From Elusimicrobiota bacterium (GTDB taxonomy: Bacteria; Elusimicrobiota; Elusimicrobia; 2-01-FULL-59-12): a stretch of 64,000 nt of DNA. The notes under the pieces were generated by a model. That model saw only the letters and a program-made list of their open reading frames with translations. It was not told the DNA's origin and ran no database searches. A program made the translations under genes and the position numbers. Shown in pieces: positions 2,394-20,702 of this stretch. The stretch covers positions 28,883-92,882 of the forward strand of contig JBAZWU010000011.1 in NCBI GenBank assembly GCA_041660185.1. Reading direction: 5' to 3'. Positions within the stretch are counted from its first letter, which is position 1. Each line of letters begins with the position of its first letter.

Positions 2394-5300
2394 TTAGCCG
2401 AGTTCGATGGTGACGCGTTCGAGCTTGCCGTCCCGCAGGGCGCGGGCCAGGCTATCGGGAAGGAAATGGACTGGATAACGGGATTCTTCCCCGTTGACTT
2501 GAACCACCGTGAAAGCGACCGGTCGGACCGCGCCCGGACCAAACGTGTCCCGCCGCTTGGGGTTGTGATAGACCACCCAGCTCCGGTTAAACAGCCGGAA
2601 ACCAAAGGACTGCGGCGGAAATCCATCCCGCTCTTTTTCACTAAAAAACCACCGGGGCAGCGTCGGTTCCGGCTGGAAATGAAGCTCGCCGTTCACCCAC
2701 CGGAACGGCCAGCGTCCGAGCCCCATATGGAGCAGCATGCTGATCCACTCCGCGGTGGCGCCGGTCAACCGGGCGACAAATCCCATGCCGTGCACGCGTT
2801 GATCGCTGAAACGGCTGCTGGCGATAAAAGACGAATTTTCCAGAATGGACCGGCCATAGCGGTGAGGGTTCTGAAAGGCAACCAGGCCGTTGCGCAGATC
2901 CGAGAAGAATTCTTTGGCCAGGCCGCTACGCAGCGTTTCCAACAGGAACTTATACGCCATGTGCAGAAAAATCGATTCATTCTCGAGCCAACCCGGTGAA
3001 AAGATCTTATTGCGGCCGATCTCATAGGATTCCTTGTCGAGCGACACATTCAACCGATACATCTTCAATTTGCGATCAAACAACGCCGACGCGCGAACCG
3101 CCTGATAAATTTTGCGGGCCTGCTGCGGGCTGCGCACCACCCGCAATGCATGAACGGGACCTTCCAAAAAAGGACTGATCGGGATTTGTTTAAACGTCAG
3201 CGCCTTGACGTACTCGACGGGTTTCCCGTCATCCGGTACGGCAGTCGCCGGCAGCATCTTGTAGTCGACGACCTCGTTAATAAAATAGGTGGGACAGAGC
3301 CCGCGCTTCATCACCTTGGCCAGTCCGGTATCCAGAACAGAAGCCACCGCTGATAAAAGCGCCTCTATATCGCTGCGGCTCAGGGGCACCTCATTGCCGC
3401 TGACGCCGAAACGCACACGCTCACGAAACTGTTCCCGCAAGGACGCCAGTGTATCCCATGTTTTAAAAAAGTCGCCCGGCTGGACCAGGGTCAGCGCTTC
3501 ACGAACCGCGTGAAGGAACTCCGCCACCTCCTCGGCGATGGCATGGGTTTCATTGTCGTCCAGAAATTCCGCCAGATGCTCCTGAAGAAATCGGACCCAG
3601 CGGCGCAACTCAAAGGCCTCACTGGTGGAGGACCCTATCAGCCCGGGCAACCCATTCAGCGCATCACACCATCCCGGTCTTTCGGCTTCCATTTCGATGC
3701 CGACACCGAAGGGATCCAGCGTCGCCGCTTTGATCCCGATGAGCCCCAGGATCTTGGCCAGAAGGGAGGTCTGGTAGATCCGGCCGGCTCCATACTGGGT
3801 CCGGACTTTAAAGGGATCGTCTTTGCGCTGATGCAACCGTTTGGTCTTCTCAGGATCCCGGACAACCGCACCCATTTGACGGATTTGCCTGTCCACGCGA
3901 CGAACATATTTCTTGTGGCGGGGCTGCACCACATGATCATTGTCGTAATAGGTGAAATCCCGGCGTTCCACCAGAAGCCACCGCAGCCGGTCCGGATAAA
4001 CCGCATAAAAACTCTCAAGAAAATCCAGGTTATAGGTCCAGTGATCCACCCAATAACCCTCTCCGTGCGCGGCATCCTGAATTTTCTCTGCCTGCGCCAG
4101 AATGTCGAGAAAATGCTCCTGAGCCCCCTGCCGGTTATCCTCTTCATGCGTTAAACGTTCGAAAAGCTCCCCGGGGCTGAATGGCTTGGTTAAAAAATGA
4201 CGCCACCCGGGCCGGATCTTTGGCGGGAAACCCGCTTCAACGGCGTCTAACCGCTCCGAAGGGACATAGAATTTTTCAAACTGGATCATGAGCGGGTTAT
4301 AGCCGTCCAGCTGGATCAGGTTAAAGAAGGTTTCGATATTGGTGGAATCGATCCCCTGGTACAGGAACGTCTCAGACCGGCGGTTTTGATTGACATCCCG
4401 ATAATTGCCGGTCCCCTGGGAAAAATAGGTCGGCGACAGCTCAAAGAAGTTATAGTCCCGTTCCATATCCCCATGCTTGCGCGAGTAATAATGAAACACC
4501 TTGGGGCGCCCCGGGCCGGAGATCTGAAAGGGCTGTCCGCCGCGCAGCATATTATCCAGAAACGCCTGACGGCTGTACGCATCCAGAACGGGAAGGGCGG
4601 AATGAACTGAAAAGGTATCCATCAACCGGCGGATCAAGGCGGAGTTCTCCGTTCGCTTCTGCTCGGCGTAGCCGGAGGACGATCGAACCAGATCCTGAAA
4701 ATTTTTCGCCTGTTCCCATCCATCGGCCTGACCGTAGTACGATTGAATCGTCGTGGACTGGCCGGGATGCAGCGTCATGGACGTCAGGCTGAGGGCGCAG
4801 GCAGACATCGATTCGGTCTGCATGAAGCCATTGGCCCTTCGATTCGACTGAAAAGCGATCGGATGCTGAAAACTGGTGTCCGAGCCGAAGACCTGAACCG
4901 GATCGACCAGAAGAGGCAATAGCTTCCCCTGGGACAACGAAAACGCAAAGAATCCCCCATGGATCCAGTGCACTTCAGGCTTGTCGGACGGTTCGGTTTT
5001 CAATTTAAAAAACGGCAGGCGATCGTCCGCATGGGTCACCTGGGCAAACGCCTCCATGGTGCGGGACATGTGCTTGCACAACCATTCATTCAACCCATAG
5101 GGAACGACGTGGGGCAGGCCGTCCAGCCAATCCCCTTTGATCACCCGGCGGCCGATGTTCTCGACATGGACCAAACGCACCAGAACCGGAAGCGTTTCAT
5201 TCGGGACATTGAAATAGGTGACACGGATTCGCAAGCCCAGCGCGGGATTCGTTTCTTCTATTTCAATTTCCTCCGGCCGAATCCTCAAAAGTTGAAGGGG

Positions 5301-5426
5301 TTTTCCCGAAGCCGACATCTGGAAGGGTTCATAGATCACTTTGGACGGATGCGACCGGAAAAAGCTTCGAAAACCCAAGAGAGGCGTCGTGATATACGCC
5401 TTATTGGCGGGATAAAACTCCAGCAT
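2394..5426 (-). CDS. large (1010 aa) glycoside hydrolase/phosphorylase-like protein, family not resolved (six-hairpin GH / GH94- or GH36-like suspected)
   Basis: Long uninterrupted ORF next to a glycogen-debranching-type gene. Aromatic- and acidic-rich segments are typical of carbohydrate-active enzymes. I cannot assign a family by eye. Confidence 0.45.
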   Translation of the reverse strand: MLEFYPANKAYITTPLLGFRSFFRSHPSKVIYEPFQMSASGKPLQLLRIRPEEIEIEETNPALGLRIRVTYFNVPNETLPVLVRLVHVENIGRRVIKGDWLDGLPHVVPYGLNEWLCKHMSRTMEAFAQVTHADDRLPFFKLKTEPSDKPEVHWIHGGFFAFSLSQGKLLPLLVDPVQVFGSDTSFQHPIAFQSNRRANGFMQTESMSACALSLTSMTLHPGQSTTIQSYYGQADGWEQAKNFQDLVRSSSGYAEQKRTENSALIRRLMDTFSVHSALPVLDAYSRQAFLDNMLRGGQPFQISGPGRPKVFHYYSRKHGDMERDYNFFELSPTYFSQGTGNYRDVNQNRRSETFLYQGIDSTNIETFFNLIQLDGYNPLMIQFEKFYVPSERLDAVEAGFPPKIRPGWRHFLTKPFSPGELFERLTHEEDNRQGAQEHFLDILAQAEKIQDAAHGEGYWVDHWTYNLDFLESFYAVYPDRLRWLLVERRDFTYYDNDHVVQPRHKKYVRRVDRQIRQMGAVVRDPEKTKRLHQRKDDPFKVRTQYGAGRIYQTSLLAKILGLIGIKAATLDPFGVGIEMEAERPGWCDALNGLPGLIGSSTSEAFELRRWVRFLQEHLAEFLDDNETHAIAEEVAEFLHAVREALTLVQPGDFFKTWDTLASLREQFRERVRFGVSGNEVPLSRSDIEALLSAVASVLDTGLAKVMKRGLCPTYFINEVVDYKMLPATAVPDDGKPVEYVKALTFKQIPISPFLEGPVHALRVVRSPQQARKIYQAVRASALFDRKLKMYRLNVSLDKESYEIGRNKIFSPGWLENESIFLHMAYKFLLETLRSGLAKEFFSDLRNGLVAFQNPHRYGRSILENSSFIASSRFSDQRVHGMGFVARLTGATAEWISMLLHMGLGRWPFRWVNGELHFQPEPTLPRWFFSEKERDGFPPQSFGFRLFNRSWVVYHNPKRRDTFGPGAVRPVAFTVVQVNGEESRYPVHFLPDSLARALRDGKLERVTIELG

Positions 5427-5666: not shown

Positions 5667-7709
5667 TTAACGCGCGGACGAAACGGACGAGGCGTTGCTG
5701 AGTTCGGCGGAGCGGGCAGCGGAAGGGTTTTTCGTCCCGAGTTCTTCACACATCACACGCAGGACTTCGGCCACGGACCAGGCTTGAGCGGTGCAACCAC
5801 GAGGGTCATGCGGCAAATCCCCATCAAAAATCTCTGAAATGGTCCCCAGGCCGCCTTCCCACAAATGCGTCAGGAGAAGCGCCAGGTGAGCCCGCAGGTG
5901 TGACTGGGTTTTGGCGGATTTGCCGTTGACCTTCTGGTAAGCGGTCAGGAACGGCCCGATCAGCCACGCCCAGACCGTTCCCTGGTGGTAAGCCGCGTCC
6001 CGGCTCCGGGGATCCCCGGTATAACGCGACGCATAACGCGGGTCCTTCGGATCAAGCGTGCGGAGCCCGAACGGCGTTAAAAGCCGCTCTTCGATCAGAG
6101 AAACGATGCGGGCGGCACGGTCCGGACTGACGCTTTCGAAAGGAAGGCTCACGGCAAATATCTGATTCGGACGCAGGCTGGTGTCGCGCTGCTCGCCGTT
6201 GATCACGTCGTAGAGATACCCCTCCTCCTCAAACCAGAACTGCCGGTTGATGGAAGTCCAGACTTTCTCGGCAAGCCCCACCCATGTTTTGGCCTGTTCT
6301 TTGTCTCCCAGACGTGTTCCGATTTGATCCATGATCCGAAGGGCGTTATACCAGAGCGCCTGAATTTCAATCGGTTTTCCGGTGCGGGGGGTCACCACCC
6401 AGTCGTTTATTTTGGCGTCCATCCAGGTGAGTTGGAGCCCGGGCTGGCCGGCATAAATCAGCCCATCCACATCCATGTGGATCTGATAATGCGTCCCGTT
6501 CTGGTAGTTCAGGAGAATCCCTTTCATTGCCTCCCACAGATGGTCGCGGACAAAATCAAAATCCCGTGTGTAGCGCAGAAAATGAAAAACCGCCAGAATA
6601 AACCACAAACTGGCATCGGCCGTATTGTATTCGGGGTTTCCGGAGGAGTCCGGAAAACGGTTCGGAACAAGCCCGTGATTCATCACCTGGGCATACGCCT
6701 GCAGGATGTCGCGCGCCGCCTGATAACGTTCCGTGACGAGCAGAAGTCCCGGCAGCGAGATGAAGGTGTCCCGACCCCAGTCTTCAAACCAGGGATAACC
6801 GGCGATGACGCTTTTCCCGGAAGCGCCTTCGGCGTCATCGATCTGTCGTTTCACCAAAAACTGATCGGCCGCCGAAACCAGGTGATGCGTCACATCGTCG
6901 GTCGCTTCCCATCCGGTCAGGAGCGCCCGCCGGCGGGCTCGTTCGGCGTTCAATAAATAGGTAGTATCAAAATAACCATCCCCTTCGGTCGTCGCGATCA
7001 GGACGGCTTCCTGATTTCCGCGCAACCGGTAGTGAAACGCACCAGCAGACCAGCAATCTTCACGGGATTCCAGCCCGCGCTCTTCTTCGCGGACGTAGGA
7101 CACATCCCGGTACCAGTTGAACCCCGGAACAAATTCGTCCGCGTTATTATGAAAGTAAACGGTCGGGACACCGGGATAAGGCTGCAGCACGCACACCCCG
7201 TTCCGTTTTTCAACCTGAGGCTGGAGCGCGCTGTTTTCCTTATGAATGGCGTGAAAATCACGGACCGTCAACAGGGGCTGGACCACGAGCTCCGCGACCA
7301 CACCGTCCTTATGCATGGTATAGGTAAGTATCGTCGTGTTCTGGCCATGGATCATCACCAGCGATTTTTCAAGGATCAGGGAGCCGAGCCGGTAGGTCCA
7401 GATCGGCCACGGGTCGATACGGAATCCGATCAGATTCTGGTCGCCGCGCGGATCCACCACTTTCGGGTACTGATGGCAGGAAAGATAATAACGGGTCCCG
7501 TTCAGAACCACCCACTCTTCCAGACCGTTGACCATCATCATCCGGCCGACCGGTGGGCGGGTGGCGGCCACTAAAAAACCATGGTAGCGGCGGGTGTTGC
7601 AGCAGAGAACGGTCGACGAAGCAAAACCGCCCAGCCCATTGGTTTCCAGCCACTCCTTGGACAGGGCGGTCTCAAAATCGCCGCAGGTATCTTTATCAAA
7701 AGCAATCAT
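5667..7709 (-). CDS. amylo-alpha-1,6-glucosidase / glycogen debranching enzyme family protein (GDE_N + GDE_C)
   Basis: N-terminus 'LETNGLGGFASSTVLCCNTRRYHGFLVAA' matches the GDE N-terminal domain. 'GYPWFEDWGRDTFISLPGLLL' matches the GDE_C catalytic-domain motif. Confidence 0.8.
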   Translation of the reverse strand: MIAFDKDTCGDFETALSKEWLETNGLGGFASSTVLCCNTRRYHGFLVAATRPPVGRMMMVNGLEEWVVLNGTRYYLSCHQYPKVVDPRGDQNLIGFRIDPWPIWTYRLGSLILEKSLVMIHGQNTTILTYTMHKDGVVAELVVQPLLTVRDFHAIHKENSALQPQVEKRNGVCVLQPYPGVPTVYFHNNADEFVPGFNWYRDVSYVREEERGLESREDCWSAGAFHYRLRGNQEAVLIATTEGDGYFDTTYLLNAERARRRALLTGWEATDDVTHHLVSAADQFLVKRQIDDAEGASGKSVIAGYPWFEDWGRDTFISLPGLLLVTERYQAARDILQAYAQVMNHGLVPNRFPDSSGNPEYNTADASLWFILAVFHFLRYTRDFDFVRDHLWEAMKGILLNYQNGTHYQIHMDVDGLIYAGQPGLQLTWMDAKINDWVVTPRTGKPIEIQALWYNALRIMDQIGTRLGDKEQAKTWVGLAEKVWTSINRQFWFEEEGYLYDVINGEQRDTSLRPNQIFAVSLPFESVSPDRAARIVSLIEERLLTPFGLRTLDPKDPRYASRYTGDPRSRDAAYHQGTVWAWLIGPFLTAYQKVNGKSAKTQSHLRAHLALLLTHLWEGGLGTISEIFDGDLPHDPRGCTAQAWSVAEVLRVMCEELGTKNPSAARSAELSNASSVSSAR

Positions 7710-10656: not shown

Positions 10657-11445
10657 ATGCGCACGGTCCTTTGGCTTCCTTTATTGCTGTGCACCACACT
10701 GGCCTGCGGATCAGAACCTCTCCGCCGGCCAGCCCAGATGGTTTCCGACTACCACGGCACGTTTCCAGACGCTTTTACGCAGCAATTCGATCGAGTACGT
10801 CTTCTGACCCGCCAAGCTCAACTGGAAGTGTCTTCGCGGCTGGGGCTCTTTCAATACCAGGAAGGATTCCATTACCCTATCCGCATTCGCTTCGAGGATA
10901 ACGCACCGGCAGGTCTTGAAAATACGCTCGCCTTCGTGCGGCTGATGCAGAACAGCCAGGGAGAGTTCAGTCAGGAACTGGTCGTCAATTTAAACGAAAC
11001 TCGCCAGGGTGCCATGGATTTTGACCAGGTATTTTTTCATGAGATGACACATGCCGTTCTAAACGATGCTGTGGGCGGCGAAGCCAGCCTGAAAATTCCG
11101 CATTGGATTCAGGAAGGACTGGCGCAGTATGTGTCGAACGAGGGCGAACCCCGGCTTCGAAAAGCCACCGCCGGGCTGACCCGGCTGACGGTGCATGTGC
11201 TTCTGTGCGACCTGAACGGTCCTTACAGCAGCCGGGCCTACCCGCAGTATTACCTCGCTATCAAATACCTTTATGAAAAATACACTAGCAACGCGATTCA
11301 AGCTCTCGTACGCATGCTGATTGACGGCAAACCCTGCCGAGAAGCGCTCCAGGAAACGACCGGCGTCCCCTGGGAGCGGTTCCAGCAGGACCTTCACGAC
11401 TACAGCCTGAACACCCTCAAGGACATCGTCGGCCCACGCTATTAA
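10657..11445 (+). CDS. putative secreted zinc metalloprotease (HEXXH motif)
   Basis: Signal peptide 'MRTVLWLPLLLCTTLACG'. 'FFHEMTHAVLND' contains HExxH. Confidence 0.5.
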   Translation: MRTVLWLPLLLCTTLACGSEPLRRPAQMVSDYHGTFPDAFTQQFDRVRLLTRQAQLEVSSRLGLFQYQEGFHYPIRIRFEDNAPAGLENTLAFVRLMQNSQGEFSQELVVNLNETRQGAMDFDQVFFHEMTHAVLNDAVGGEASLKIPHWIQEGLAQYVSNEGEPRLRKATAGLTRLTVHVLLCDLNGPYSSRAYPQYYLAIKYLYEKYTSNAIQALVRMLIDGKPCREALQETTGVPWERFQQDLHDYSLNTLKDIVGPRY

Positions 11446-11676: not shown

Positions 11677-11997
11677 TCAGGCAGCTGTTTTGAAGGATGA
11701 GTTCTTGCGGGGTTGGAAGGTCAGGTCAATGCCTAGAGCCGTCAGCAGTTTGGTGACGCTGAACCACTCGGGGTTTCCATTTTTGGAGAGCATGACATAC
11801 AGATGCCGACGATCGAGTTTTACCGTACGAGAAATATGAGACATGCCCGAATGCGCATCAATAACATCCTTCAGCGCAAGCAGGAAAACGCGTTTATCGG
11901 CATCCTGGTAGGCGGCACGAAGGTAGCCGGCCGCCTGAACCGGGTCCTTTAAAGATTCCTGTAATTCCTTTTCATAACTACGGGCGCGCTTCATACG
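11677..11997 (-). CDS. type II antitoxin, HTH 'addiction module antidote protein' family (HigA-like)
   Basis: The likely start is the internal Met 'MKRARSYEKELQESLKDP'. 'LLALKDVIDAHSGMSHISRTVKLDRRHLYVMLSKNGNPEWFSVTKLLTALGIDL' matches the antidote-family HTH pattern. It overlaps the upstream toxin stop by a few bases. Confidence 0.7.
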   Translation of the reverse strand, partial: RMKRARSYEKELQESLKDPVQAAGYLRAAYQDADKRVFLLALKDVIDAHSGMSHISRTVKLDRRHLYVMLSKNGNPEWFSVTKLLTALGIDLTFQPRKNSSFKTAA

Positions 11998-12341
11998 TTT
12001 GATCTCCGAAAATCTTCCCAATAGTTTTTTGCCAGTCCGATGTCTTTCCGGGCCTGAGTACTTTTGTCTCCCCCGCAGAGCAGCACGATGAGCGTGTTGC
12101 GCCATTCAGCAAAATAGACCCGGTAACCGGGCCCAACATAAAACTTCAGTTCCCAAATTCCGTCCCCGACGGCACCGCATCGGCCCATAAGCCCAAGACG
12201 GACGCGCGCCAAACGGGCCCGCAGAGCATCCACAAAGACCGGATGTTTGAGTGAGTCTCTCCATTCCAGAAAAGGGCACGTTCCATCCTCTTTTTCGTAA
12301 TAGATGATTTGTCGCGGTGTCGGTTCCAGGCCATCTTCCTT
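11991..12341 (-). CDS. type II toxin, RelE/ParE superfamily 'addiction module killer' (HigB-like); no canonical in-frame start codon upstream of a GTG at 12233
   Basis: My translation of the minus strand gives '...IIYYEKEDGTCPFLEWRDSLKHPVFVDALRARLARVRLGLMGRCGAVGDGIWELKFYVGPGYRVYFAEWRNTLIVLLCGGDKSTQARKDIGLAKNYW'. This is the typical family sequence. The frame is open back to a stop at 12342-12344, but with no ATG/GTG/TTG before residue V at 12233. Confidence 0.6.
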   Translation of the reverse strand, partial: KEDGLEPTPRQIIYYEKEDGTCPFLEWRDSLKHPVFVDALRARLARVRLGLMGRCGAVGDGIWELKFYVGPGYRVYFAEWRNTLIVLLCGGDKSTQARKDIGLAKNYWEDFRRSNV

Positions 12342-12431
12342 TCAAATTGTGTGTTATAAACGACAACTCGTCAAGTCGTTTCTGTTCTACTAATTTAGAG
12401 CACTGAACCATCCAAATATTCATTTCCTCGG

Positions 12432-12449: not shown

Positions 12450-12816
12450 GGGGCTGAATAGGTTCGACAGGATTGGACGGAGCGGACAGTCGCAGGCCCT
12501 GGTTGGTCGAATCCAGGTAAAAAGTCGGCCAAAACACAACTGGCGAATACGCCCTCGCTGCCTAAACAACAGCGTGCCCTCGGCTTTTAAGCTGAGGCGC
12601 TCTCTCCGGCCCCGCCTGTGGGCGGAGTCAGAGCGTCATCATGCAGGCTAGGATCGGTTCTCTCGCCCTGAAGAGCTGATCCGAAATCCAGCAGGGCTAG
12701 TTCTTACGAAGGCCGTTCTCAGCCTGAGTAAGGTCGAAACCTAAAAGGGGACTAAGCTTGTAGGGACCCCGCTAGGCTAATCTTGGACCCGGGTGCAATT
12801 CCCGGCAGCTCCACCA
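12450..12816 (+). ncRNA. ssrA: tmRNA (SsrA), about 367 nt, predicted tag peptide GQNTTGEYALAA
   Basis: The 5' end 'GGGGCUGAAUAGGUUCGACAGG' pairs with the 3' end '...GGACCCGGGUGCAAUUCCCGGCAGCUCCACCA' (a tRNA-Ala-like acceptor/T-arm with a G3:U pair). The internal ORF 'GUC GGC CAA AAC ACA ACU GGC GAA UAC GCC CUC GCU GCC UAA' (12527-12565) ends in the YALAA* degradation tag. Confidence 0.9.
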
Positions 12817-12825
12817 CTTCAATAG

Positions 12826-12870
12826 AAAAGCCGGCACTTCTTCGTCAGAGGAGGTGTCGGCTTTGCTTTT
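12826..12870. terminator. intrinsic terminator after ssrA (possibly bidirectional with the convergent pilin-like gene)
   Basis: 'aaaagccggcac' (12826-12837), a 17-nt loop, then 'gtgtcggcttt' and 'gctttt'. This is an 11-bp stem with one G-U pair followed by a T tract. The opposite strand also has a T-rich tail. Confidence 0.5.
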
Positions 12871-12897
12871 GGACCAACTTAAAAAGGAGGGTAAATC

Positions 12898-13209
12898 CTA
12901 CCGATGGGGCGGGACGTACGCGGAAGGAATTCTGCTGATGTATTTTTGTACCAGAGAGTTGATATCCGTTGGATACGTTCCTGCGTTGTCGCTGTAATAA
13001 ATGCTGAGGGCGGAACGGAGCGCTCCAAGGTTGCCTTTGGTCACTCCCTCCTGTGCTTTAGAAACCATATCGGCAAACCGCGGAATCGCGATCGCGCAAA
13101 GAATGGAGATGATCGCGACCACGATCATGAGTTCAATTAATGTGAATCCGGACTGGCAGGGTCTCTGACAACCGTGGAATCCATCGAAACGAGTTAGTCT
13201 AATATCCAA
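12898..13209 (-). CDS. prepilin-type N-terminal cleavage/methylation domain protein (type IV pilin / T2SS pseudopilin-like)
   Basis: 'QSGFTLIELMIVVAIISILCAIAIPRF' is the canonical G|FTLIE prepilin motif plus hydrophobic helix. The leader before G is unusually long in this ORF, so the true start may be internal. Confidence 0.7.
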   Translation of the reverse strand: MDIRLTRFDGFHGCQRPCQSGFTLIELMIVVAIISILCAIAIPRFADMVSKAQEGVTKGNLGALRSALSIYYSDNAGTYPTDINSLVQKYISRIPSAYVPPHR

Positions 13210-13544
13210 GCTTTCCCTTTCCGGTCGGGATGACCGCAGTTGACACCGATATGTCCGAATCGAGGATCAGCGGGATCGTTATAGTAAACCCAACCTCCGG
13301 TGTCATCCATAAAGCCGTAATTACCCGCTTCATTAACCACTTGACTGGATGCTATATGACCAGGGTTGGTACGGCAGCGGTTCGGATAAGTGTAGTAGGG
13401 AGGGGTTTCGGGAGCGCAATCATTAAACCGAATGATGCATCCATCCCCCATCCGGATATCGTATTCACAGGCCATCGAACTCCGGCTGAAAAGACCCAGG
13501 AGGCTCAGTACCCCTACAACAAAGACAATCCTGTTTTTATCCAT
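13194..13544 (-). CDS. hypothetical small secreted cysteine-rich protein
   Basis: 116 aa with a signal-like N-terminus and 7 Cys. No family recognised. Confidence 0.4.
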   Translation of the reverse strand: MDKNRIVFVVGVLSLLGLFSRSSMACEYDIRMGDGCIIRFNDCAPETPPYYTYPNRCRTNPGHIASSQVVNEAGNYGFMDDTGGWVYYNDPADPRFGHIGVNCGHPDRKGKAWILD

Positions 13545-13679
13545 GGCCGTGATCCTCCTTCGAAAGGGTTGCTACCTTAATCAACAACTCTACTATTGTA
13601 TACCCCCAAAATAGGAGTCAGTCAACGGGGGTACTGCTTATCGTTACAATCACAAAGTAGCTGTATAAATCAACGTGTT

Positions 13680-14273
13680 TTATCGTCTTACTTTTTCAAG
13701 ATCCGAGGCCTTCATAACTGCTATTACGCCTTTGCGCATTCGATTGTCGCCGCTCCACGGACCGCCGTTTTCATCATAGGGGATCTCCGCAACGGTATCC
13801 GGGGAAACAAGATATCGGGTGCGAGAAGAACGCTGTCCTTTTAAATAGCGAGTGGGAAAGACTTTCTCTTCTATTTCACTGCGAGTCATACCCGGCCGGA
13901 TCTGCGAAGACCAATCATTGTCGGGTGGGTATGAATTCTTAGGATGCCGTCTTTGATAAGCCCCCCATAAACCGCTCAAGATACCGGCCGCCAGCATCGC
14001 GATAAGAATGAGGCGTTGAAGCCATGTGGTGTTCTCCAGAGTCCCCAAAAGCGTCGAATCATCCAGTTTCTCCGGCAAAGGCGTTTCCTCGGAAACGGAA
14101 GGGACGTCTGTAACTTCAGGAGCGGATGGGTTGTCTTCCGATGGCCTGGCAGAAACCATAAATAACCCTATTTTTTGAAGCTCCGCGGCCAACGCGTGAG
14201 TGTCCTCCGCCGCCAGGTTTCCCTGGACAGTCTTCCCCTGCAGATCCATCGCTGTGTAATGAAATTCGGTCAT
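13680..14273 (-). CDS. hypothetical single-TM protein with GspF/PilC N-terminal-like domain
   Basis: N-terminus 'HYTAMDLQGKTVQGNLAAEDTHALAAELQKIGLFMVS' resembles the cytoplasmic N-domain of T2SS/T4P platform proteins. One TM (LILIAMLAAGILSGLWGAY) follows. Confidence 0.45.
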   Translation of the reverse strand: MTEFHYTAMDLQGKTVQGNLAAEDTHALAAELQKIGLFMVSARPSEDNPSAPEVTDVPSVSEETPLPEKLDDSTLLGTLENTTWLQRLILIAMLAAGILSGLWGAYQRRHPKNSYPPDNDWSSQIRPGMTRSEIEEKVFPTRYLKGQRSSRTRYLVSPDTVAEIPYDENGGPWSGDNRMRKGVIAVMKASDLEKVRR

Positions 14274-14343
14274 TCCAAGATCTCCTCGTTAAGATTAGCC
14301 CACATGAGAGATGATGTCAAGGAAACCGCAACAGCACCGCGCT

Positions 14344-14850
14344 CTATTTCAGTTGAGACAAAACAGCCTGCAGTTCGGCGCTGTGCGTGGCTGGGGTGAC
14401 GGAGCGGTTGATGTAGACCAGCCGGCCTGCTTTGTCGATGATAAAGCTCTGGCGGCTGGCGAATAAAAGCCCCCCCGCGCCGTAGGCTTTGGCGATGGAT
14501 TTGTCGGTGTCCGAGAGCAGCAGGAAGGGCAGCCGGTACTTCTCGATGAATTTCCGGTGAGATTCGATGGAGTCGAAGCTGATGCCGAAGACCGTGGCCT
14601 TGAGGGTGCGGAACGCGGCGAAATCGTCACGCAGGCCGCAGGCTTCCTTAGTGCATCCAGGAGTATCGTCTTTGGGGTAAAAGTAGAGGACGATCGGCGC
14701 ACGGTTTAACCACTCTTCCAGATGGACCTGGGAACCATCGCTCGCCGGAGCCGTAAACTCCGGCGCCAGGGATCCCACCTTCAGTTCCGCTGCTCCTGCT
14801 TTTGAAAAAACCATGAGAACCACCCCCAGCACGATCCCGATCTTGCCCAT
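14344..14850 (-). CDS. peroxiredoxin (Bcp/AhpC-TSA family thiol peroxidase), with signal peptide
   Basis: 'APEFTAPASDGSQVHLEEW...IVLYFYPKDDTPGCTKEACGLRD' contains the peroxidatic TPGC-T-E motif of Bcp-type peroxiredoxins. Confidence 0.85.
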   Translation of the reverse strand: MGKIGIVLGVVLMVFSKAGAAELKVGSLAPEFTAPASDGSQVHLEEWLNRAPIVLYFYPKDDTPGCTKEACGLRDDFAAFRTLKATVFGISFDSIESHRKFIEKYRLPFLLLSDTDKSIAKAYGAGGLLFASRQSFIIDKAGRLVYINRSVTPATHSAELQAVLSQLK

Positions 14851-15081
14851 ATTTCAGTTTAGCACTTCAGAAGCTTACGGGGCTCTTATTTCTTATGGCA
14901 TAAAACCTCATCACATTCTCACATTGGGTCACCCCTTTGATTGTTAATCTCTGAAACCTTGGATGTAAGGTAATTTTTCTTCGGGCGGTTTCGGTTTTTT
15001 CTTAAGATCCTCGACGTCTCGAATCAGCAGTCGAATGTCGGTGTCATGCACCGAGACTTTCCCCTCCAGTTTTTCGACCCT

Positions 15082-15411
15082 TCAAGCAACGCTTTGATGC
15101 GCCAGGATGGCATGGCGCAATTTCACGAAGGCCCTCATGATCGCGATGTTCACTTGAACGGCTCGTTCGCTTTGAAGAACGCTCGATAACATGGCAATGC
15201 CTTGTTCAGTAAAGGCAAGCACCCGCTTCGAATATTTCAGAGTGTGCGTTCTTCCAGAGGATATCCCAATTTGGGATATCCTCATAATTTCGTAGCGACT
15301 GAGCTCGAACATAAAGTCCAGAGGGAATCTATCCCGGTTGCGCATGACAGCCCAGTTCAGAATGCGGGGTTCAACTCCATAAAGGTCAGCCAAATCCGAA
15401 TCCAACATCAC
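15082..15411 (-). CDS. ORF6N (KilA-N-related) domain protein, N-terminus possibly truncated
   Basis: 'MLDSDLADLYGVEPRILNWAVMRNRDRFPLDFMFELSRYE...SERAVQVNIAIMRAFVKLR' matches the ORF6N domain pattern. A stop lies immediately upstream of the GTG start, so the usual first ~10 residues of the domain are missing. Confidence 0.65.
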   Translation of the reverse strand: MMLDSDLADLYGVEPRILNWAVMRNRDRFPLDFMFELSRYEIMRISQIGISSGRTHTLKYSKRVLAFTEQGIAMLSSVLQSERAVQVNIAIMRAFVKLRHAILAHQSVA

Positions 15412-15690
15412 CTACTGTCCCCTAATCCGGTAGATGCGGCTCTGCACGTTCGGCGTTTTTGTTGCGAGGGGGTGCTGCCCTGCGCAGGAGCGCGACGTGA
15501 GGCCTGCGGCTTGGGAGCGAGGGCGGGTCAGCCGAGGGCTGTCTGAGGCGCCAGACTTCTGGCGCCGAGTTCCGCAGGCTGCTCGAGCGGACAAGACGGA
15601 GCTGTCAGGCCGGTTGGAGCGCTCTAGCGCAGGGCGGCACACCGAGTGGACAACCGCCACCGCGCCAATTACATCAGGAGATACTGGGAG

Positions 15691-16158
15691 TTATTTCGAG
15701 CTTTTGACGGCAGGATTCGCAATCGACAGACACCACAAAAAGAAGCTGCTGACGATTCCACCGGTCAAGCAACCGGAAATCAGCGCTCCGCCCAGACGAA
15801 ACCAGGTCGGGAACTGATGAAACTGGACCGGGAATTGGATCAGGCTGCCAATCATCTGCGTCAGGGATCCAACGATCGCGCCCAAAGAGAAACACCGTCC
15901 AAAATCATACGGTTGATGGAAGTACGTCGTACGCCGGGCCAGGAAAACCGACACAGCCCACAACAGCCCGCCTCCGACCAACGTCGCGAGCCAATTTGTT
16001 TCAATCATCCAACCCAGCAACACCAACGGATGCGTTTGGGCGAAGAGTGGTATACCTTTTATCCGCAGAAGTATCCAAAGAATGACATGCCCAAGAACGA
16101 AATAGGTCAGCCAAAAAACAAAAGACCAGAATTTCGAAAAGCGCATGTTAAATGGCAA
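15691..16158 (-). CDS. hypothetical membrane protein
   Basis: 155 aa with 4 predicted TM segments. No family recognised. Confidence 0.45.
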   Translation of the reverse strand: MPFNMRFSKFWSFVFWLTYFVLGHVILWILLRIKGIPLFAQTHPLVLLGWMIETNWLATLVGGGLLWAVSVFLARRTTYFHQPYDFGRCFSLGAIVGSLTQMIGSLIQFPVQFHQFPTWFRLGGALISGCLTGGIVSSFFLWCLSIANPAVKSSK

Positions 16159-16663
16159 CCGTTTCTAGTTTAGTGATGTCGGCGCCGAAGACGGGCACCA
16201 TACCGAGGTAAACGGTGCTGTCCCGGTGGATCCAGCTGTGGGTGCCCCGCTCGTCCTGGAAGAGAATCTCATAACCGTCACCGTCCCGGTAATCCGTCTC
16301 CAGAACGATCGCGACATGATTAATGCGGGACCGACTGTCCCGGAAGAAAAGAAGATTTCCCGGCTGCACCATCGCCAGCGGCACGGTCGCTCGGAGGGTT
16401 TTAGCGTGATACGCCCAGCGCCGGGCCGATCCATAGGTCGTATAGCGCTTGCCGGTCATGAGATACAGTCCGTAACGCGCGAACGCCGCGCAGTGACGGT
16501 GCCGCCCGTTATAGGGATTGTTTATCCGAAGAACATCCGGAGAGAGGGCGACCGCATTCACCCCCGGCTTATCCGCCCCGGCGAGCCGCGAAGCGCTGAT
16601 CGTAAAAATAAGCGAGCCACTGAGGAGAATCCGTCCGGCTTTTTGAATGATCGATATTCTCAT
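16148..16663 (-). CDS. NlpC/P60 (C40) family peptidase-like secreted protein
   Basis: Signal peptide. The motifs 'HCAAFARYGLY' (Cys), 'GNLLFF' and 'INHVAIVL' (His) follow the order of NlpC/P60 catalytic residues. Confidence 0.55.
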   Translation of the reverse strand: MRISIIQKAGRILLSGSLIFTISASRLAGADKPGVNAVALSPDVLRINNPYNGRHRHCAAFARYGLYLMTGKRYTTYGSARRWAYHAKTLRATVPLAMVQPGNLLFFRDSRSRINHVAIVLETDYRDGDGYEILFQDERGTHSWIHRDSTVYLGMVPVFGADITKLETVAI

Positions 16664-16679
16664 GGGATTTCGCGCTCCA

Positions 16680-17534
16680 TCATACCAAAGTAAGTTTTGC
16701 CCCTAAACGGACTCTTCGCTTGTTGATCAAAGGACGGATCGCGCCGAGAAGCAGTAAGGCGGCTCCAAACGTACAAACGACGGTGGCCCCTGTGGGCGTA
16801 TCGAAGCCGTAAGACGCGTAGATCCCGATCAGGCTGACCAGCGTCCCCATGGTCCATCCGAAGGCGAGGCGCGGCCCGACGCGGTCAAAGAAGAGCATGG
16901 CCCCAACCGCCGGCACAATTAAGAAAGAAAATACCAGCAGCACCCCGGCGATGGCCACCGACGACGTCACCACAAACCCGAAGGTGCCGTAGAAGAGAAA
17001 ATCCCACAACCGGCCCTGGTATCCCGTCTCCTCGGCGGTGTCGTGATGGGTGGAAATGGCGAGAAACGGCTTGCGCCAGATCCAATGCAGCAGGCCGACG
17101 AAGGCATAGACGACCGCGATTTTGACCACCTCCAAAGGGGTGACCGCCAGCAGATTGCCGACCAGGATGTATTTGATATGTTCGCCGCCTTCCGGAAGAC
17201 GGTCCATCACCAGGACCGCGGCGGCCGCGCTGACCGCGTAGACAATCCCGATAAAGGCCTCCTGCGGCACTTTGCCGCGCTGCATGCGCACGAAGGCAAA
17301 GATGGCGGCACCCAACAGCGTGAAGCCCAGCGATGTGACGTAGGTGGTCTGGCTGTGGAGATCAAATCCCGACAAGAGCGCGATGGTGGCTCCCAGCGAT
17401 GCGATCTGGGCCAGGGACAGATCGACAAAAATAACACCGCGCTCAACCACGTGAAGCCCCAGGTAAGCATGAATACCGGTAAGCACCAGGCAGGCCAGCG
17501 CCGGCCACAAAAGGATCTGGATAATTTCAGGCAT
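16680..17534 (-). CDS. metal ABC transporter permease (ABC-3 family, ZnuB/MntB-like)
   Basis: 284 aa, polytopic. 'LWPALACLVLTGIHAYLGLHVVERGVIFVDLSLAQIASLGA' is typical of ABC-3 permeases. Confidence 0.85.
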   Translation of the reverse strand: MPEIIQILLWPALACLVLTGIHAYLGLHVVERGVIFVDLSLAQIASLGATIALLSGFDLHSQTTYVTSLGFTLLGAAIFAFVRMQRGKVPQEAFIGIVYAVSAAAAVLVMDRLPEGGEHIKYILVGNLLAVTPLEVVKIAVVYAFVGLLHWIWRKPFLAISTHHDTAEETGYQGRLWDFLFYGTFGFVVTSSVAIAGVLLVFSFLIVPAVGAMLFFDRVGPRLAFGWTMGTLVSLIGIYASYGFDTPTGATVVCTFGAALLLLGAIRPLINKRRVRLGAKLTLV

Positions 17535-18478
17535 CAGGATTTACCTCCGAGCGTGTTCTTGATTAGATTCAGATCGTAATCAAAAAGGTCAAAGTACGTT
17601 TTGATCGACTGGACGCCTCCCACCGATGGCGGAAACAGGAGCATCCGGGCGCCGGTATCGGCCACGATCTTCTGCGGGAGCTTCTCGTCGAAATAGGGCT
17701 CGATCAGGAGGAGCGGAATTTTTTCGCGCTTGACTTGATTGATCAAGTTCTGCACGTGGACCGGAGAAGGCGGGATGCCGGGTTTGGGCTCCACATGATT
17801 GACGATGTCCAGCCCGAACGTCTCCGCGAAGTTGGGCCAGGAGTTGTGGTAGGTGATGACCCGGGTCCCCTTGAAGGAATCCGCCAGGCGGTGCCACTCT
17901 ATTTCTTTCTCGGTCAGACGGTTTTCAAAGACCTTCAGATTCTCCGCATACACCGCACGGTTCGCCGGATCGAGTTCACTCAGCTTGCCGGCGATATGCC
18001 GGGCGATCACGCGCCCGTTCTCCGGGTCTGTCCAGTAATGCGGATTGCCAAAGGGATGAACATCCCCCATCGACCGGTCCACCGTGCCGGCGGACTTCTG
18101 CAGAACATCGCAGCCTTCGGAGGCATCCAGAAAACCCGGATTGCCGGGAAGAATTTTCGTATTGCGGGCATTCTGCAGAAGCGGCGGCAGCCATCCGGTT
18201 TCCAATTCCAGCCCCACCACCATCAACAGATCCGCCCGATTCAGTTTGAGAAGGTAACTCGGCTTGGGATCGACAAAATGCGGGTCCTGATACCCCTTGG
18301 CGATCGCTTGAACATCGATATGGTCCCGGCCGATCTCGCTGGCGAGCGCGGCCAGATCCTGGGTTGTAGTCACCACCTGCAGTTTGGCGGAGGCGAGCGA
18401 CGGTCCGAGCGAAAGAGCCAGTAAACAAATGAGTAATCGTTGAATGAATTTCATAATTGTTTCTCCCTTAAAAAGCAT
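17534..18478 (-). CDS. metal ABC transporter substrate-binding protein (ZnuA/TroA family)
   Basis: Signal peptide. 'DPHFVDPKPSYLL...HPFGNPHYWTDPENG' matches the cluster A-I SBP pattern. The likely true start is the internal 'MKFIQRLL'. Confidence 0.85.
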   Translation of the reverse strand: MLFKGETIMKFIQRLLICLLALSLGPSLASAKLQVVTTTQDLAALASEIGRDHIDVQAIAKGYQDPHFVDPKPSYLLKLNRADLLMVVGLELETGWLPPLLQNARNTKILPGNPGFLDASEGCDVLQKSAGTVDRSMGDVHPFGNPHYWTDPENGRVIARHIAGKLSELDPANRAVYAENLKVFENRLTEKEIEWHRLADSFKGTRVITYHNSWPNFAETFGLDIVNHVEPKPGIPPSPVHVQNLINQVKREKIPLLLIEPYFDEKLPQKIVADTGARMLLFPPSVGGVQSIKTYFDLFDYDLNLIKNTLGGKS

Positions 18479-19631
18479 GGGCCCCGTGAGGGCCGATATT
18501 AAAGGTCACGCGCAACAACCCGAGGTCTTCCTTCAACCCGTCGGAGCGGTTCACATGACTGCCCTGCAGGCTCAGATGACTGAACTCCGTCGGGGAGTAC
18601 GTGAGAAAGACGAGGCCCCCGTATTCATGGAGCGAGCTGTCCGTGGGGAACTGCGAATAATCGTAGCGCCCGCCAGCGGCCCAGCGCTGGGCAAACTGAT
18701 ACTGGAGCCAGCTCATGAGTCCGCGGCTGTCTTGGGTGTCGGACGTGCTGTTGTCATGCTTGTTCCAGAGCGCCTCGGTCTGCCAGATCAACGAACGGTA
18801 GATGGCGCGCGCCGGGTTCTTCCAGCGGAACGTGACATCGACCGAGTACAACTGGCTGTGAAGGGTGTTGGACGAATTCAGCGTAACCGGATCGAGCTGC
18901 TGACCGGAAGGGCCGTAGGCATAACTCCCGCCATAGGAAACGTTGGCCGCGTCCGTCAGGTCAAAGTAGCTGTTGAGCCGCGCGGTATAGAGCAGGTCTC
19001 TGCGCTGCGCGCGGTCAAAGGCCGGGCTGTCCGTGACCTCCGGAGGCCTGAGCGCCTCAAAATCCGCGTTGAGGTAAACCCAGGGATTGGGAATCAACCA
19101 GGACAAACCCGCGCCGGTGCCGGCGAGGCCGTCTTCGCCAAGGTAATTGCGCTCGACCAGGGGCCGTGTGGCGAAGGGCGTATCATGCGGATGCGTACGG
19201 TTAAACGGACCAAAATAGGATCTGAATTTCCCGCCGCGCAATCCCAAACCAGCCGGGAGATGAAACCACGTGACATACCCCTCTTCCAGTTCGGCATTGC
19301 CGTCCGAATCGAAGCTCAGAAAGAAATCTCCCCGCGCCCAGGGGTCGACGATGGCTTGAAAGGCGATTTCCGTTTCTTTCAGCTGAAGCGCCGGCTCGGC
19401 GTCATGCCCGGGGTCGTGCGGATGGCCTGCTTCGCTCTGGAACCAGCCGACCACGCTGAGATTGGGGTTCAAGATATTGGAACTCAGGAGAGCGCCGGAC
19501 GTGCCGGCACTCGGCGGAGCAGCGGCTGCTCCGGACGGACTGCTCAGACCGGGCGGCTCAGACGTCTGGGCCGCGGCCAGGGATGGTCCAGCGGCCAACA
19601 GGATGCAGATCACAATAAACTTCCGATTCAT
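18468..19631 (-). CDS. putative outer-membrane beta-barrel (porin-like) protein
   Basis: 387 aa with signal peptide 'MNRKFIVICILLAAGPSLAAA'. It has alternating aromatic beta-strand-like segments and a C-terminal '...GPHGAHAF' (terminal Phe). It is preferred over the long antisense ORF 18444..19820. Confidence 0.55.
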   Translation of the reverse strand: MNRKFIVICILLAAGPSLAAAQTSEPPGLSSPSGAAAAPPSAGTSGALLSSNILNPNLSVVGWFQSEAGHPHDPGHDAEPALQLKETEIAFQAIVDPWARGDFFLSFDSDGNAELEEGYVTWFHLPAGLGLRGGKFRSYFGPFNRTHPHDTPFATRPLVERNYLGEDGLAGTGAGLSWLIPNPWVYLNADFEALRPPEVTDSPAFDRAQRRDLLYTARLNSYFDLTDAANVSYGGSYAYGPSGQQLDPVTLNSSNTLHSQLYSVDVTFRWKNPARAIYRSLIWQTEALWNKHDNSTSDTQDSRGLMSWLQYQFAQRWAAGGRYDYSQFPTDSSLHEYGGLVFLTYSPTEFSHLSLQGSHVNRSDGLKEDLGLLRVTFNIGPHGAHAF

Positions 19632-19688
19632 AAGACCTCCTCATTTCAGAGAGAGATGCTCCGGACATCTAATGGAACAGCTTGTGTC

Positions 19689-19964
19689 TCAGAAGGAGAG
19701 GGCGGGAGGAGAAAGGCCGTGGGAAACGAAAACGAAGTGAACGTACGAAGAAGGGCCATCAATAAACAGGGAATCCGTAATCACAACTCCCGGAACGATC
19801 CGCTGCGCGACATCCGTTAAAGCGGGCGTCTGATGAGCGATTTTACAGACAACACAATTCGTTTCGGATTGGACCGCCGGGTGGCGGTGGCACATCTGCA
19901 GCGCGGAGGATCCGAGGAATACGGAAAGGATCAGCAACGGCAAAACCCGGGCGCACTTTTTCAT
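19689..19964 (-). CDS. hypothetical small secreted protein (CxxH/CxxC-containing)
   Basis: 91 aa with a signal-like N-terminus. Weak call. Confidence 0.3.
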   Translation of the reverse strand: MKKCARVLPLLILSVFLGSSALQMCHRHPAVQSETNCVVCKIAHQTPALTDVAQRIVPGVVITDSLFIDGPSSYVHFVFVSHGLSPPALSF

Positions 19965-19999
19965 TACGGAGGGATAATAGCCCGGATCAGCGGATCAAG

Positions 20000-20371
20000 T
20001 CAACTTTTGGGAGGAAAGAGGAGTTGCCGGACGTTTTTCACGAGGTCGTCCGGATCGAAGGGTTTGTCCATGTAATGGACGACATTGGGAACCAGTTTGA
20101 AAATCTCGCGCGAACTGCCTTTGGCCGTCAGAACTAAAATTGGAATCCGGCGCATCTCCGGGTCTTTGAAAAGCGCTCCGCTCACGCAGAAGCCGTCCAT
20201 CCCGGGCATCATCACATCCAGAATAATCAGGTCGGGCCACTCCTCACGGGCCATCTCAATCCCGGACTGGCCGTCGCGCGCCACGCTCACGGTGTGCCCC
20301 TCCTTCACCAGGAGGAAGCCCAGCATCCTCAGAATATTGGGGTCATCGTCTATGATCAGAATCTTAGCCAT
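20000..20371 (-). CDS. single-domain response regulator (CheY-like receiver)
   Basis: 'MAKILIIDDDPNILRMLGFLL...DLIILDVMMPGMDGF...ILVLTAKG...YMDKPFDPDDL' contains the canonical D-D...D...T...K receiver residues. Confidence 0.85.
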   Translation of the reverse strand: MAKILIIDDDPNILRMLGFLLVKEGHTVSVARDGQSGIEMAREEWPDLIILDVMMPGMDGFCVSGALFKDPEMRRIPILVLTAKGSSREIFKLVPNVVHYMDKPFDPDDLVKNVRQLLFPPKS

Positions 20372-20428
20372 GAGTCACCTCTCCAGCAGAGATACCTTAA
20401 TAATCTTCAGATTTCAATGGGAATATTG

Positions 20429-20545
20429 CAAAGGGAAAGCCCGCTTCTGTGCCCAACTGGACTTGACCGCCACACGTCGGGCGGTCACCCGCCTGGTTTG
20501 TGGCGGGTGAACCAGTAACCTCAACTTTCGTGCCTTGAACGGTGA
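20429..20545. repeat. degenerate partial duplicate of the 3' half of tRNA-Arg (anticodon arm to 3' end) carrying a 42-nt nested-hairpin insertion in the T-loop; att-site-like scar
   Basis: 'aagcccgcttctgtgcccaactggacttga' (20429-20460) is near-identical to 20554-20585. 'gaaccagtaacctcaac' (20509-20525) repeats 20584-20600. The insert 'ccgccacacgtcgggcggtcacccgcctggtttgtggcgg' forms stems CCGCCACA/TGTGGCGG and GGCGG/CCGCC. Confidence 0.6.
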
Positions 20546-20565
20546 CCAAAAGAGAAGCCCGCTAC

Positions 20566-20639
20566 TGTGCCCAACTGGACTTGAACCAGTAACCTCAACC
20601 TTCGCAGGGTTGCGCTCTATCCAATTGAGCTATGGGCAC
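20566..20639 (-). tRNA. tRNA-Arg (anticodon GCG as read; A20 identity element present; 3' CCA not encoded)
   Basis: The minus-strand sequence is GTGCCCATAGCTCAATTGGATAGAGCGCAACCCTGCGAAGGTTGAGGTTACTGGTTCAAGTCCAGTTGGGCACA. It folds with a 7-bp acceptor stem, a GCTC/GAGC D-stem, a CAACC/GGTTG anticodon stem with loop CUGCGAA, and a 5-bp T-stem. Confidence 0.8.
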
Positions 20640-20702
20640 AGAAGCGGGCCGTGTAACGCGAAGTCCTATTGTATCACAACATCGGAATTTGGACTTTGGA
20701 AG

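Follow-up and report, generated by a model that had tools for sequence, protein, structure and literature searches.

A tRNA-Arg 3′-half copy with a palindromic T-loop insert beside an intact tRNA-Arg(GCG) gene in an Elusimicrobiota genome

Genes for tRNAs reportedly serve as attachment (att) sites of integrating elements, and Reiter in 1989 and Williams in 2002 are said to have described the resulting attL and attR as direct repeats of the 3′ part of the tRNA, with an identity block that typically reaches from the anticodon loop to beyond the 3′ end; precise excision of such an element leaves no scar. Other interruptions of tRNA genes are known from archaea, where intron-containing, split, and permuted tRNA genes occur and where tRNA-Arg(GCG) with G34 is the norm, and Rickettsia palindromic elements insert into RNA and protein genes. 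Small palindromic repeats in the form of a REPIN consist of two inverted repetitive extragenic palindromic (REP) sequences, and REPs, REPINs, and bacterial interspersed mosaic elements (BIMEs) are mobilized by REP-associated tyrosine transposases (RAYTs) (PMC3337134, PMC3116915). Here, we analyzed a stretch of 64,000 nucleotides (hereafter the window; GCA_041660185.1, contig JBAZWU010000011.1, positions 28,883–92,882) from an Elusimicrobiota bacterium, in which a second copy of the 3′ half of an intact tRNA-Arg(GCG) gene, with a palindromic insert in the T loop, lies downstream of that gene. Taken by itself, the feature is a harmless tRNA pseudogene fragment with a palindromic repeat, both of known kinds. 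Comparison with the same locus in relatives leads us to favor, tentatively and at slightly less than an even chance, a reading in which the distal segment is a dead tRNA-Arg 3′-half remnant left by turnover of the tRNA unit at a recombination-prone locus, that is, a collapsed nest of one unit within another.

The only tRNA that ARAGORN returned for the window is a tRNA-Arg with anticodon GCG at 20565–20640 on the minus strand, intact and with CCA not encoded, and the Rfam tRNA model RF00005 scored 71.3 bits at 20566–20639 of that strand, against a gathering score of 29. Both results agree with an earlier note on this DNA, which had recognized a canonical tRNA-Arg at 20566–20639 with the anticodon loop CUGCGAA; direct reading of the window gives CTGCGAA. 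The identity elements of tRNA-Arg, namely C35, G36, A20 in the D loop (AATTGGATA), and the discriminator A73, were likewise found by direct reading. The tRNA-Arg sequences of two relatives (loci L077 and L153) are identical to that of the window, and ACG-type orthologs occupy the same syntenic site in distant relatives. In the Logan assembly L001 (SRR18595301), the whole intergenic region is identical to the window, the same reads possibly lying behind both assemblies.

Beyond the 3′ end of this gene, a repeat finder detected two direct repeats, 20429–20466 versus 20547–20584 (89%) and 20508–20530 versus 20582–20604 (96%), which belong to one interrupted copy. Once the insert is removed, an alignment of the two copies spans 61 positions, 56 of them identical and 5 mismatched; the homology starts at C35 in the anticodon loop and stops some 20 nt beyond the tRNA. 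The duplicate of the segment from the anticodon arm to the 3′ end, as the earlier note had it, is therefore homologous; the copy does contain the tRNA 3′ half but does not end with it, since about 20 nt of 3′ trailer were copied as well. The first part of the distal copy (CGAAAGTTGAGGTTACTGGTTCA, 20508–20530, minus strand) reaches from C35 to the 5′ side of the T loop, is identical to 20582–20604 at 22 of 23 positions, and has G39 changed to A, which breaks the anticodon stem. The second part (20448–20466, minus strand) comprises the 3′ side of the T loop, the T stem, and the 3′ acceptor strand down to A73, and matches the tRNA 3′ end at 20/20 positions. It is succeeded by a distal trailer (20429–20448, minus strand) made of the arm AGAAGCGGGC, a perfect partner of the leader in the inverted repeat I1, and the T-rich tail TTTCCCTTTG. 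A 16-nt spacer (GTCACCGTTCAAGGCA, 20531–20546, minus strand) separates the two copies and has no homology to the DNA beyond the distal copy, and the tails past the homology block are not significantly similar (an equally good score in 1981 of 2000 shuffles). The spacer together with these non-homologous unit ends led us to reject a simple tandem duplication. The spacer was also considered as a third degenerate copy and rejected, the 7-mer GTTCAAG being all it has in common with the T loop (p about 0.06–0.12). An E-value scan with Rfam across the window region and the nest of the relative L007 (below) recovered the tRNA and sub-threshold noise only.

Within its 43 tRNA-derived nucleotides, the distal copy differs from the tRNA by a single mismatch, while the flanking DNA could not be aligned with that of the nearest relatives, whose neighboring protein is about 71% identical. 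Because of this disparity, the copy is, judged by its sequence, young and not an old decayed island, which disagrees with the old excision or decayed island proposed by the earlier note. The duplicate is absent from L077 and L153 despite their identical tRNA. No relative with a neighboring protein more than 72% identical was found, and the state just before the event is thus unseen. The distal segment is probably a non-functional remnant, which may incidentally provide a second terminator arm.

The T loop of the distal copy holds 44 extra nucleotides, that is, a 41-nt insert at 20467–20507 and a duplicated TCA (20508–20510 and 20464–20466), instead of the 42 nt previously assigned to the insert. 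The insert has an 8-bp terminal inverted repeat at its ends and the 3-bp TCA duplication on its flanks, and reads as CCGCCACAAACCAGGCGG and then inverted CCGCCACACGTCGGGCGG, that is, as two CCGCCACA-type palindromes (form CCGCCACA...GGCGG) in inverted orientation with a short spacer, the arrangement of a REPIN and similar to a BIME. It folds as two adjacent hairpins of 6–8 bp (DNA ΔG −15.8 kcal/mol, z = −2.7), so that the earlier observation of a T loop interrupted by two stems holds, but the hairpins lie side by side and are not nested. The 40-mer quoted at that time corresponds to 20467–20506 and occurs once in the window, with 0 occurrences expected by chance. A search for further copies of the insert across the 64 kb found none beyond the known one, even when 3 mismatches were allowed, and repetition within the window was rejected. 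Related sequences were found in relatives: hairpin A is identical at 20 of 21 positions to 5061–5081 of L007 (E = 5e-4 in ~1 Mb of loci), and the hairpin B beside it in L007 has a loop identical at 6/8 positions to that of the window and differs by one compensatory stem pair. This L007 doublet likewise lies inside a loop of a pseudo-tRNA-Arg. Hairpin doublets with CCGCCAC, often accompanied by GTAG, are scattered through L005 and occupy about six sites within 20 kb of L163, which is the L007 genome; the GTAG motif is missing from the window insert and present as GTAGTGGCGG / CCGCCACTAC in the L005 and L007 hairpins. A Pfam scan detected no RAYT (Y1 transposase) among the 47 open reading frames (ORFs) of the window, and hairpin A has 0 exact matches in viral contigs.

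For the comparison with relatives, alignment of homologs of the neighboring DUF3307 protein yielded 71 genome and 80 metagenome loci, and exact protein look-up added 12 more; all of these are metagenome assemblies, that of L007/L163 being a complete chromosome. Partial tRNA-Arg copies occur in six lineages among about 45 loci. In L092 (1077–1331), whose tRNA is very similar to that of the window, the outer copy is split by an intact unit at C35/G36, exactly where the window duplicate begins; the inner unit has a perfect 23-bp leader/trailer repeat, and the minimum free energy (MFE) fold is a perfect nest (z = −9.95). In L076 (4135–4322, minus strand), an intact unit lies within the T loop of the outer copy, and the complete 2.7-Mb chromosome of L007 carries a three-level nest involving the D loop and the T loop (4996–5380, equal to L163 10996–11380). 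L005 and L101 have a 3′ remnant only, as the window does. In L005 (3197–3265), an intact GCGC-type tRNA-Arg(GCG) with CCA adjoins the last 18 nt of a GTGCC-type tRNA-Arg, and a CCGCCAC hairpin doublet at the T-loop position joins the intact gene and the remnant, an arrangement that shows the outright replacement of one tRNA-Arg gene type by another. Fragments of the 5′ part upstream of the intact gene also occur in relatives. All 7 junctions fall in loops, 6 of them in anticodon or T loops, and the inserted unit of 3 of the 4 nests has no promoter and corresponds approximately to the primary transcript that would be expected. The near identity of inner and outer copies indicates local sources, and the scattered distribution of the fragment loci, each with closer relatives bearing a single clean gene, indicates that the events are recurrent.

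Since the L092 nest has the same C35/G36 junction and L076 and L007 carry nested units, we read the window as a collapsed nest. The starting unit would have been a long hairpin composed of a promoter, a 10-nt leader arm, the tRNA, a complementary trailer arm, and a T-run. A copy of this unit would have entered the resident gene at the anticodon-loop position C35/G36, giving a nest of the order 5′ half, leader–tRNA–trailer, and 3′ half. Recombination between the directly repeated 5′ halves would then have removed one of them, so that the intact tRNA remained, separated by a short spacer from the old 3′ half and its trailer, and this redundant 3′ half may afterward have gained, in its T loop, the 41-nt palindromic doublet, which with its terminal inverted repeat and TCA duplication resembles a REPIN or a miniature inverted-repeat transposable element (MITE). 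What the analysis shows directly are the structures and their homology, the nests in relatives, the recurrence, the youth of the copy, and the lack of an integrase in the regions scanned; we infer the order of these events, the collapse, and the action of some agent that inserts units into loops. Several points weigh against this reading. No 5′ fragment survives in the window, and nest and collapse are therefore proposed by analogy; the nests of the relatives, moreover, come from metagenome assemblies. The anticodon and T loops that hold six of the seven junctions are the preferred positions of tyrosine integrases, so that a site-specific recombinase acting in trans is possible. Pairing of the leader is perfect with the distal arm but not with the proximal arm, and the proximal half could be of outside origin. 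Finally, the insert is single-copy in 64 kb, and is thus at most putatively mobile in this genome.

A broader proposal, which we regard as doubtful, is that the hairpin-shaped tRNA-Arg(GCG) unit is a self-inserting module that hits the anticodon (C35/G36), T, and D loops of its own gene, producing nests up to three levels deep that collapse to remnants. The promoterless, transcript-like inserted units suggest that a process mediated by RNA or targeting folded single-stranded DNA is possible, and the CCGCCAC palindromes would use the same loops as the self-inserting unit. If true, this would represent a previously undescribed route of gene turnover for an essential tRNA. Independently of this proposal, the comparison indicates that one and the same essential tRNA gene was copied into its own loops again and again; were a defined mechanism to drive this, it would represent a new kind of structure-targeted insertion.

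Two further features were noted at the fragment loci. Outer copies of L076 (~4280–4301, minus strand) and L007 (5275–5297 and 5050–5108) have, in place of the anticodon arm, an 8-bp stem with a tetraloop, NNNNCCAG-NNNN-CTGGNNNN; compensatory pairs distinguish its three versions, and either a conserved shell or a replacement of REP type could account for it. The remnant of L101 (4136–4178, minus strand; L162 ~11136–11178) is an orphan tRNA-Arg 3′ fragment that starts from the anticodon loop and adjoins the tmRNA gene, with a TATAAT-like motif before it and no intact tRNA-Arg within 10 kb; the large ORFs that follow it in L162 have no Pfam or PHROG match, and a prophage next to it was considered and rejected.

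The unit of the window has a layout that recurs in a sub-clade of the relatives. An extended −10-like sequence TGTGATACAAT (20668–20678, minus strand), found by direct reading about 18 nt upstream of the leader arm, is its putative promoter; a consensus promoter scan of the unit found no full sigma-70 promoter. A T[AG][CGT]AAT motif within 45 nt upstream is present in 20 of 31 distinct GCG-type loci versus 4 of 21 ACG-type loci, and a TGnTACAAT-like motif precedes the GTGCCC-start tRNA-Arg units of the sub-clade. The 5′ leader arm GCCCGCTTCT (20640–20649, minus strand) prolongs the acceptor stem, taking part with the acceptor strand in the inverted repeats I1 and I2. The proximal trailer (20547–20566, minus strand), delimited by direct reading and the repeat finder, consists of the arm AGTAGCGGGC, which pairs with the leader with one T·T mismatch, and the T-rich tail TTCTCTTTTG. 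Leader and 5′ acceptor strand are complementary to the distal acceptor and trailer (20439–20455) at 17/17 positions in I1 and to the proximal acceptor and trailer (20557–20573) at 16/17; the leader arm alone pairs at 10/10 positions with the distal and at 9/10 with the proximal trailer arm. In the MFE fold of the 236-nt region (z = −6.3), it is the distal arm with which leader and 5′ acceptor strand pair. Relative to L077, which has a leader G and a trailer T, the window has a leader T and a distal A, apparently a compensatory pair.

Across the sub-clade with GTGCCC-start, CCA-less tRNA-Arg, a leader of 8–23 nt is complementary to the trailer and lengthens the acceptor stem. In 17 units, all with distinct arm sequences and some with G·U pairs, own leader and trailer pair at a mean of 9.2/10 positions, compared with 6.6/10 for pairings across loci, while in ACG-type and CCA-encoding genes the pairing reaches just 2–8/12 and the arm feature is missing. 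A T-run of at least four T follows the trailer arm in 14 of 21 GTGCC-type loci. These features suggest that in the GTGCCC sub-clade the whole pre-tRNA may act as a giant terminator-like hairpin. A standard terminator scan called no terminator at the window unit; it is silent on the proximal trailer because the "loop" of the hairpin would be the entire tRNA. Such giant hairpins with covarying arms raise questions about RNase P and 3′ processing. The sole other tRNA seen in the sub-clade, a tRNA-Ala of L009 (3360–3450), is laid out likewise, its acceptor stem extended by 10 bp and followed by T7. In L153, a relic AAGCCCGCTGC hairpin lies beside the stop codon of the DUF3307 gene, and it matches the leader arms of L077 and of the window.

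The position of tRNA-Arg beside a DUF3307 gene is common across the phylum Elusimicrobiota. The tRNA marks a synteny breakpoint: HisRS, the CHASE2 cyclase, DUF3307, and tRNA-Arg are kept, and the downstream genes differ throughout. Several relatives have tRNA-Arg and tmRNA side by side; in the window the two stand 7.7 kb apart, the segment between them (12817–20430) is window-specific, and the shared genes (Peptidase_MA_2, GATase_4, and Cob_adeno_trans) resume past tmRNA. This segment encodes a response regulator (20000–20371, minus strand, downstream of tRNA-Arg), an unknown 387-aa protein, ZnuA, an ABC-3 permease, CHAP/NlpC, ORF6N, AhpC, and a pilin-like protein. It was considered as an island with att repeats, and its far end holds neither a tRNA or tmRNA fragment nor a bounding repeat. 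The downstream genes of the relatives (MFS and others) were not found elsewhere in the window. As the earlier note had already remarked for the surroundings of the tRNA, integrases are lacking: the Pfam scan of the 47 window ORFs found no integrase, transposase, or RAYT, the same holds for 30 downstream ORFs of relatives among the best 25 of 41 families, and no integrase appears in the precomputed Pfam matches of ten relatives' loci (L153–L163). Exact matching of window or L007-type 3′ halves against viral contigs, as a search for attP-like sequences, gave 0 matches.

Some observations on this neighborhood stand apart. The tmRNA of the window (12450–12816, plus strand) has an unusually short predicted tag, GEYALAA, the tags of relatives ranging from 8 residues (GEPLALAA) to about 27 (e.g., GNRLNAMRSFMPNMMPMHMPLAA), and beside the tmRNA gene lies a two-gene module with an addiction-module antidote domain (dnstrm_HI1420; 11680–12423, minus strand). 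The orientation of the tRNA with respect to the conserved DUF3307 gene flips among close relatives (L077, L153, L154, L005, L076, L078, L081, L087, L100, and the window). Downstream of the nested tRNA of L163, three tandem DUF1016/YhcG PDDEXK-nuclease cassettes (14158–18179) are 95–98% identical, and the same locus has other short dispersed repeats (11357–11441 and 13327–13411; 6394–6452 and 10891–10949).

Against the collapsed nest, the explanation closest to the earlier note is a classical att scar, in which an attP matched the tRNA-Arg 3′ half and crossover took place in the anticodon loop, the intact gene being attL, the distal copy attR, and the cargo deleted down to 16 bp. The direct repeat has the geometry typical of such sites, as it starts at C35 and overshoots the 3′ end by about 20 nt. 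The leader arm pairs without mismatch with the distal trailer and at 9/10 positions with the proximal one, which fits the distal copy as the native end, and synteny breaks at the tRNA in almost all relatives, with a window-specific 7.7-kb stretch before tmRNA; in L005, moreover, the resident tRNA was replaced by another tRNA-Arg type at a T-loop junction. However, no mobile-element DNA lies between the repeats, and an att pair 16 bp apart requires an almost complete internal deletion of the element, while the 7.7-kb segment has no bounding repeat. The searches described above revealed no tyrosine or serine integrase beside the tRNA, either here or in relatives, and no exact 3′-half match in viral contigs, and the comparison of relatives for an integrated element at this tRNA accordingly came up without an integrase (for their ORFs, again among the best 25 of 41 families). 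The copy is also young, and the 5′ fragments and nests of L092, L076, and L007 are left unexplained, because 3′-end replacement by an integrase cannot yield them. Thus, of the att-site scar formerly suggested, the repeat geometry and the missing integrase stand, but an origin by excision or from an island does not agree with the 16-bp gap, the youth of the copy, and the nests in relatives, and we regard it as unlikely, if still the strongest of the competing explanations.

Somewhat less probable in our view is a replication error alone, by which a backward template switch through slippage or microhomology duplicated the 3′ half with a short filler, the palindrome arriving later. The scale of tens of bases, the near identity of the copies, and the very stable secondary structure of the region (z = −6.3) are in line with it, and, as quasi-palindrome template switching yields perfect or extended palindromes, so are the leader/trailer palindromes, e.g., the 23 bp of L092; yet the non-homologous spacer excludes simple tandem duplication, direct reading finds no microhomology at the junction, and the reuse of C35/G36 in L092 together with loop positions at 7/7 junctions argues for a targeted process. 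That the distal acceptor/trailer arm and the hairpins are a functional RNA, kept as a back-up terminator or alternative leader partner that affects pre-tRNA processing or read-through into the response-regulator gene, appears improbable: the perfect 17-bp complementarity used by the MFE fold, the apparently compensatory leader/arm change relative to L077, the T-rich tail after the distal arm, and the compensatory pair of hairpin B between the window and L007 would fit, but a single compensatory pair is weak evidence, the distal copy occurs only in this genome and not in L077 and L153 with their identical tRNA, G39-to-A breaks a stem, and neither the terminator scan nor Rfam gave a match. An assembly artefact fusing two strain variants of the locus, conceivable for a metagenome-assembled genome in which repeats invite misassembly, is very hard to credit, given that a second assembly is identical, that the spacer and diverged trailers are unlike a collapsed bubble, and that several independent samples, as well as the complete chromosome of L007/L163, have analogous structures. 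The collapsed nest therefore keeps our tentative preference.

The GCG anticodon, which the earlier note had read correctly but taken as an oddity of this sequence, turned out to be a trait of the clade. All 31 distinct tRNA-Arg loci of closer relatives (L003–L010, L073–L100, and L153–L161) have GCG, which is why a misreading can be dismissed, and 21 distinct loci of more distant Elusimicrobiota (L012–L072 and L103–L147) have ACG at the same position. This distribution points to a clade-wide switch from A34, with inosine decoding, to G34. Most bacteria read CGU, CGC, and CGA with an inosine-modified tRNA-Arg(ICG) (PMC3711424). The Arg codons of the window ORFs comprise 177 CGT, 359 CGC, 94 CGA, and 437 CGG, and since CGA is used, another tRNA must read it. 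No motif of a TadA-like deaminase was found within the 64-kb window. A G34-bearing tRNA-Arg(GCG) in a whole bacterial clade bears on the dispensability of TadA beyond Mollicutes. Mollicutes without TadA (PMC3711424) share with this clade the departure from the near-universal bacterial tRNA-Arg(ACG) edited to ICG, but they lose or alter TadA and keep other anticodons, whereas the Elusimicrobiota clade is free-living and has G34 in place of A34. The G34 clade, like the recurrent nests of tRNA within tRNA and the covarying leader/trailer hairpins, is drawn from metagenome assemblies and from reasoning across them.

Set beside the systems described at the outset, the locus resembles tRNA att sites in that the repeat begins in the anticodon loop and passes the 3′ end, and in that the displaced fragment lies downstream of the intact gene; it differs in its 16-bp gap without cargo, in having no integrase here or, among the best 25 of 41 families, beside the relatives' tRNA, and in that relatives hold 5′ fragments and full nests, including a D-loop junction. 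If a defined mechanism drives the copying of this tRNA into its own loops, it would caution against treating each tRNA 3′ fragment as an island boundary. With REPs, REPINs, BIMEs, and MITEs, the insert has in common its two short GC-rich inverted palindromes that form a longer hairpin, the 8-bp terminal inverted repeat, and the 3-bp duplication, and related doublets are dispersed in intergenic DNA of L005 and L007/L163; unlike REPs and REPINs, the 41-nt insert occurs once in 64 kb, lacks GTAG, has no RAYT or other transposase in the window, and sits inside tRNA-derived sequence and not in plain intergenic DNA. Rickettsia palindromic elements similarly place a small palindrome inside the sequence of a structured-RNA gene, but the host in the window is a redundant pseudogene fragment and not a working gene, and the sequences are unrelated. 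Archaeal split and permuted tRNAs are comparable in the interruption of D, anticodon, and T loops and in the GC-rich leader/trailer helices flanking the tRNA parts. In contrast to the archaeal genes, the host here is bacterial, as it has tmRNA, the interrupted copies are dispensable next to an intact gene that is always present, and what takes the place of the "intron" is a whole tRNA unit.

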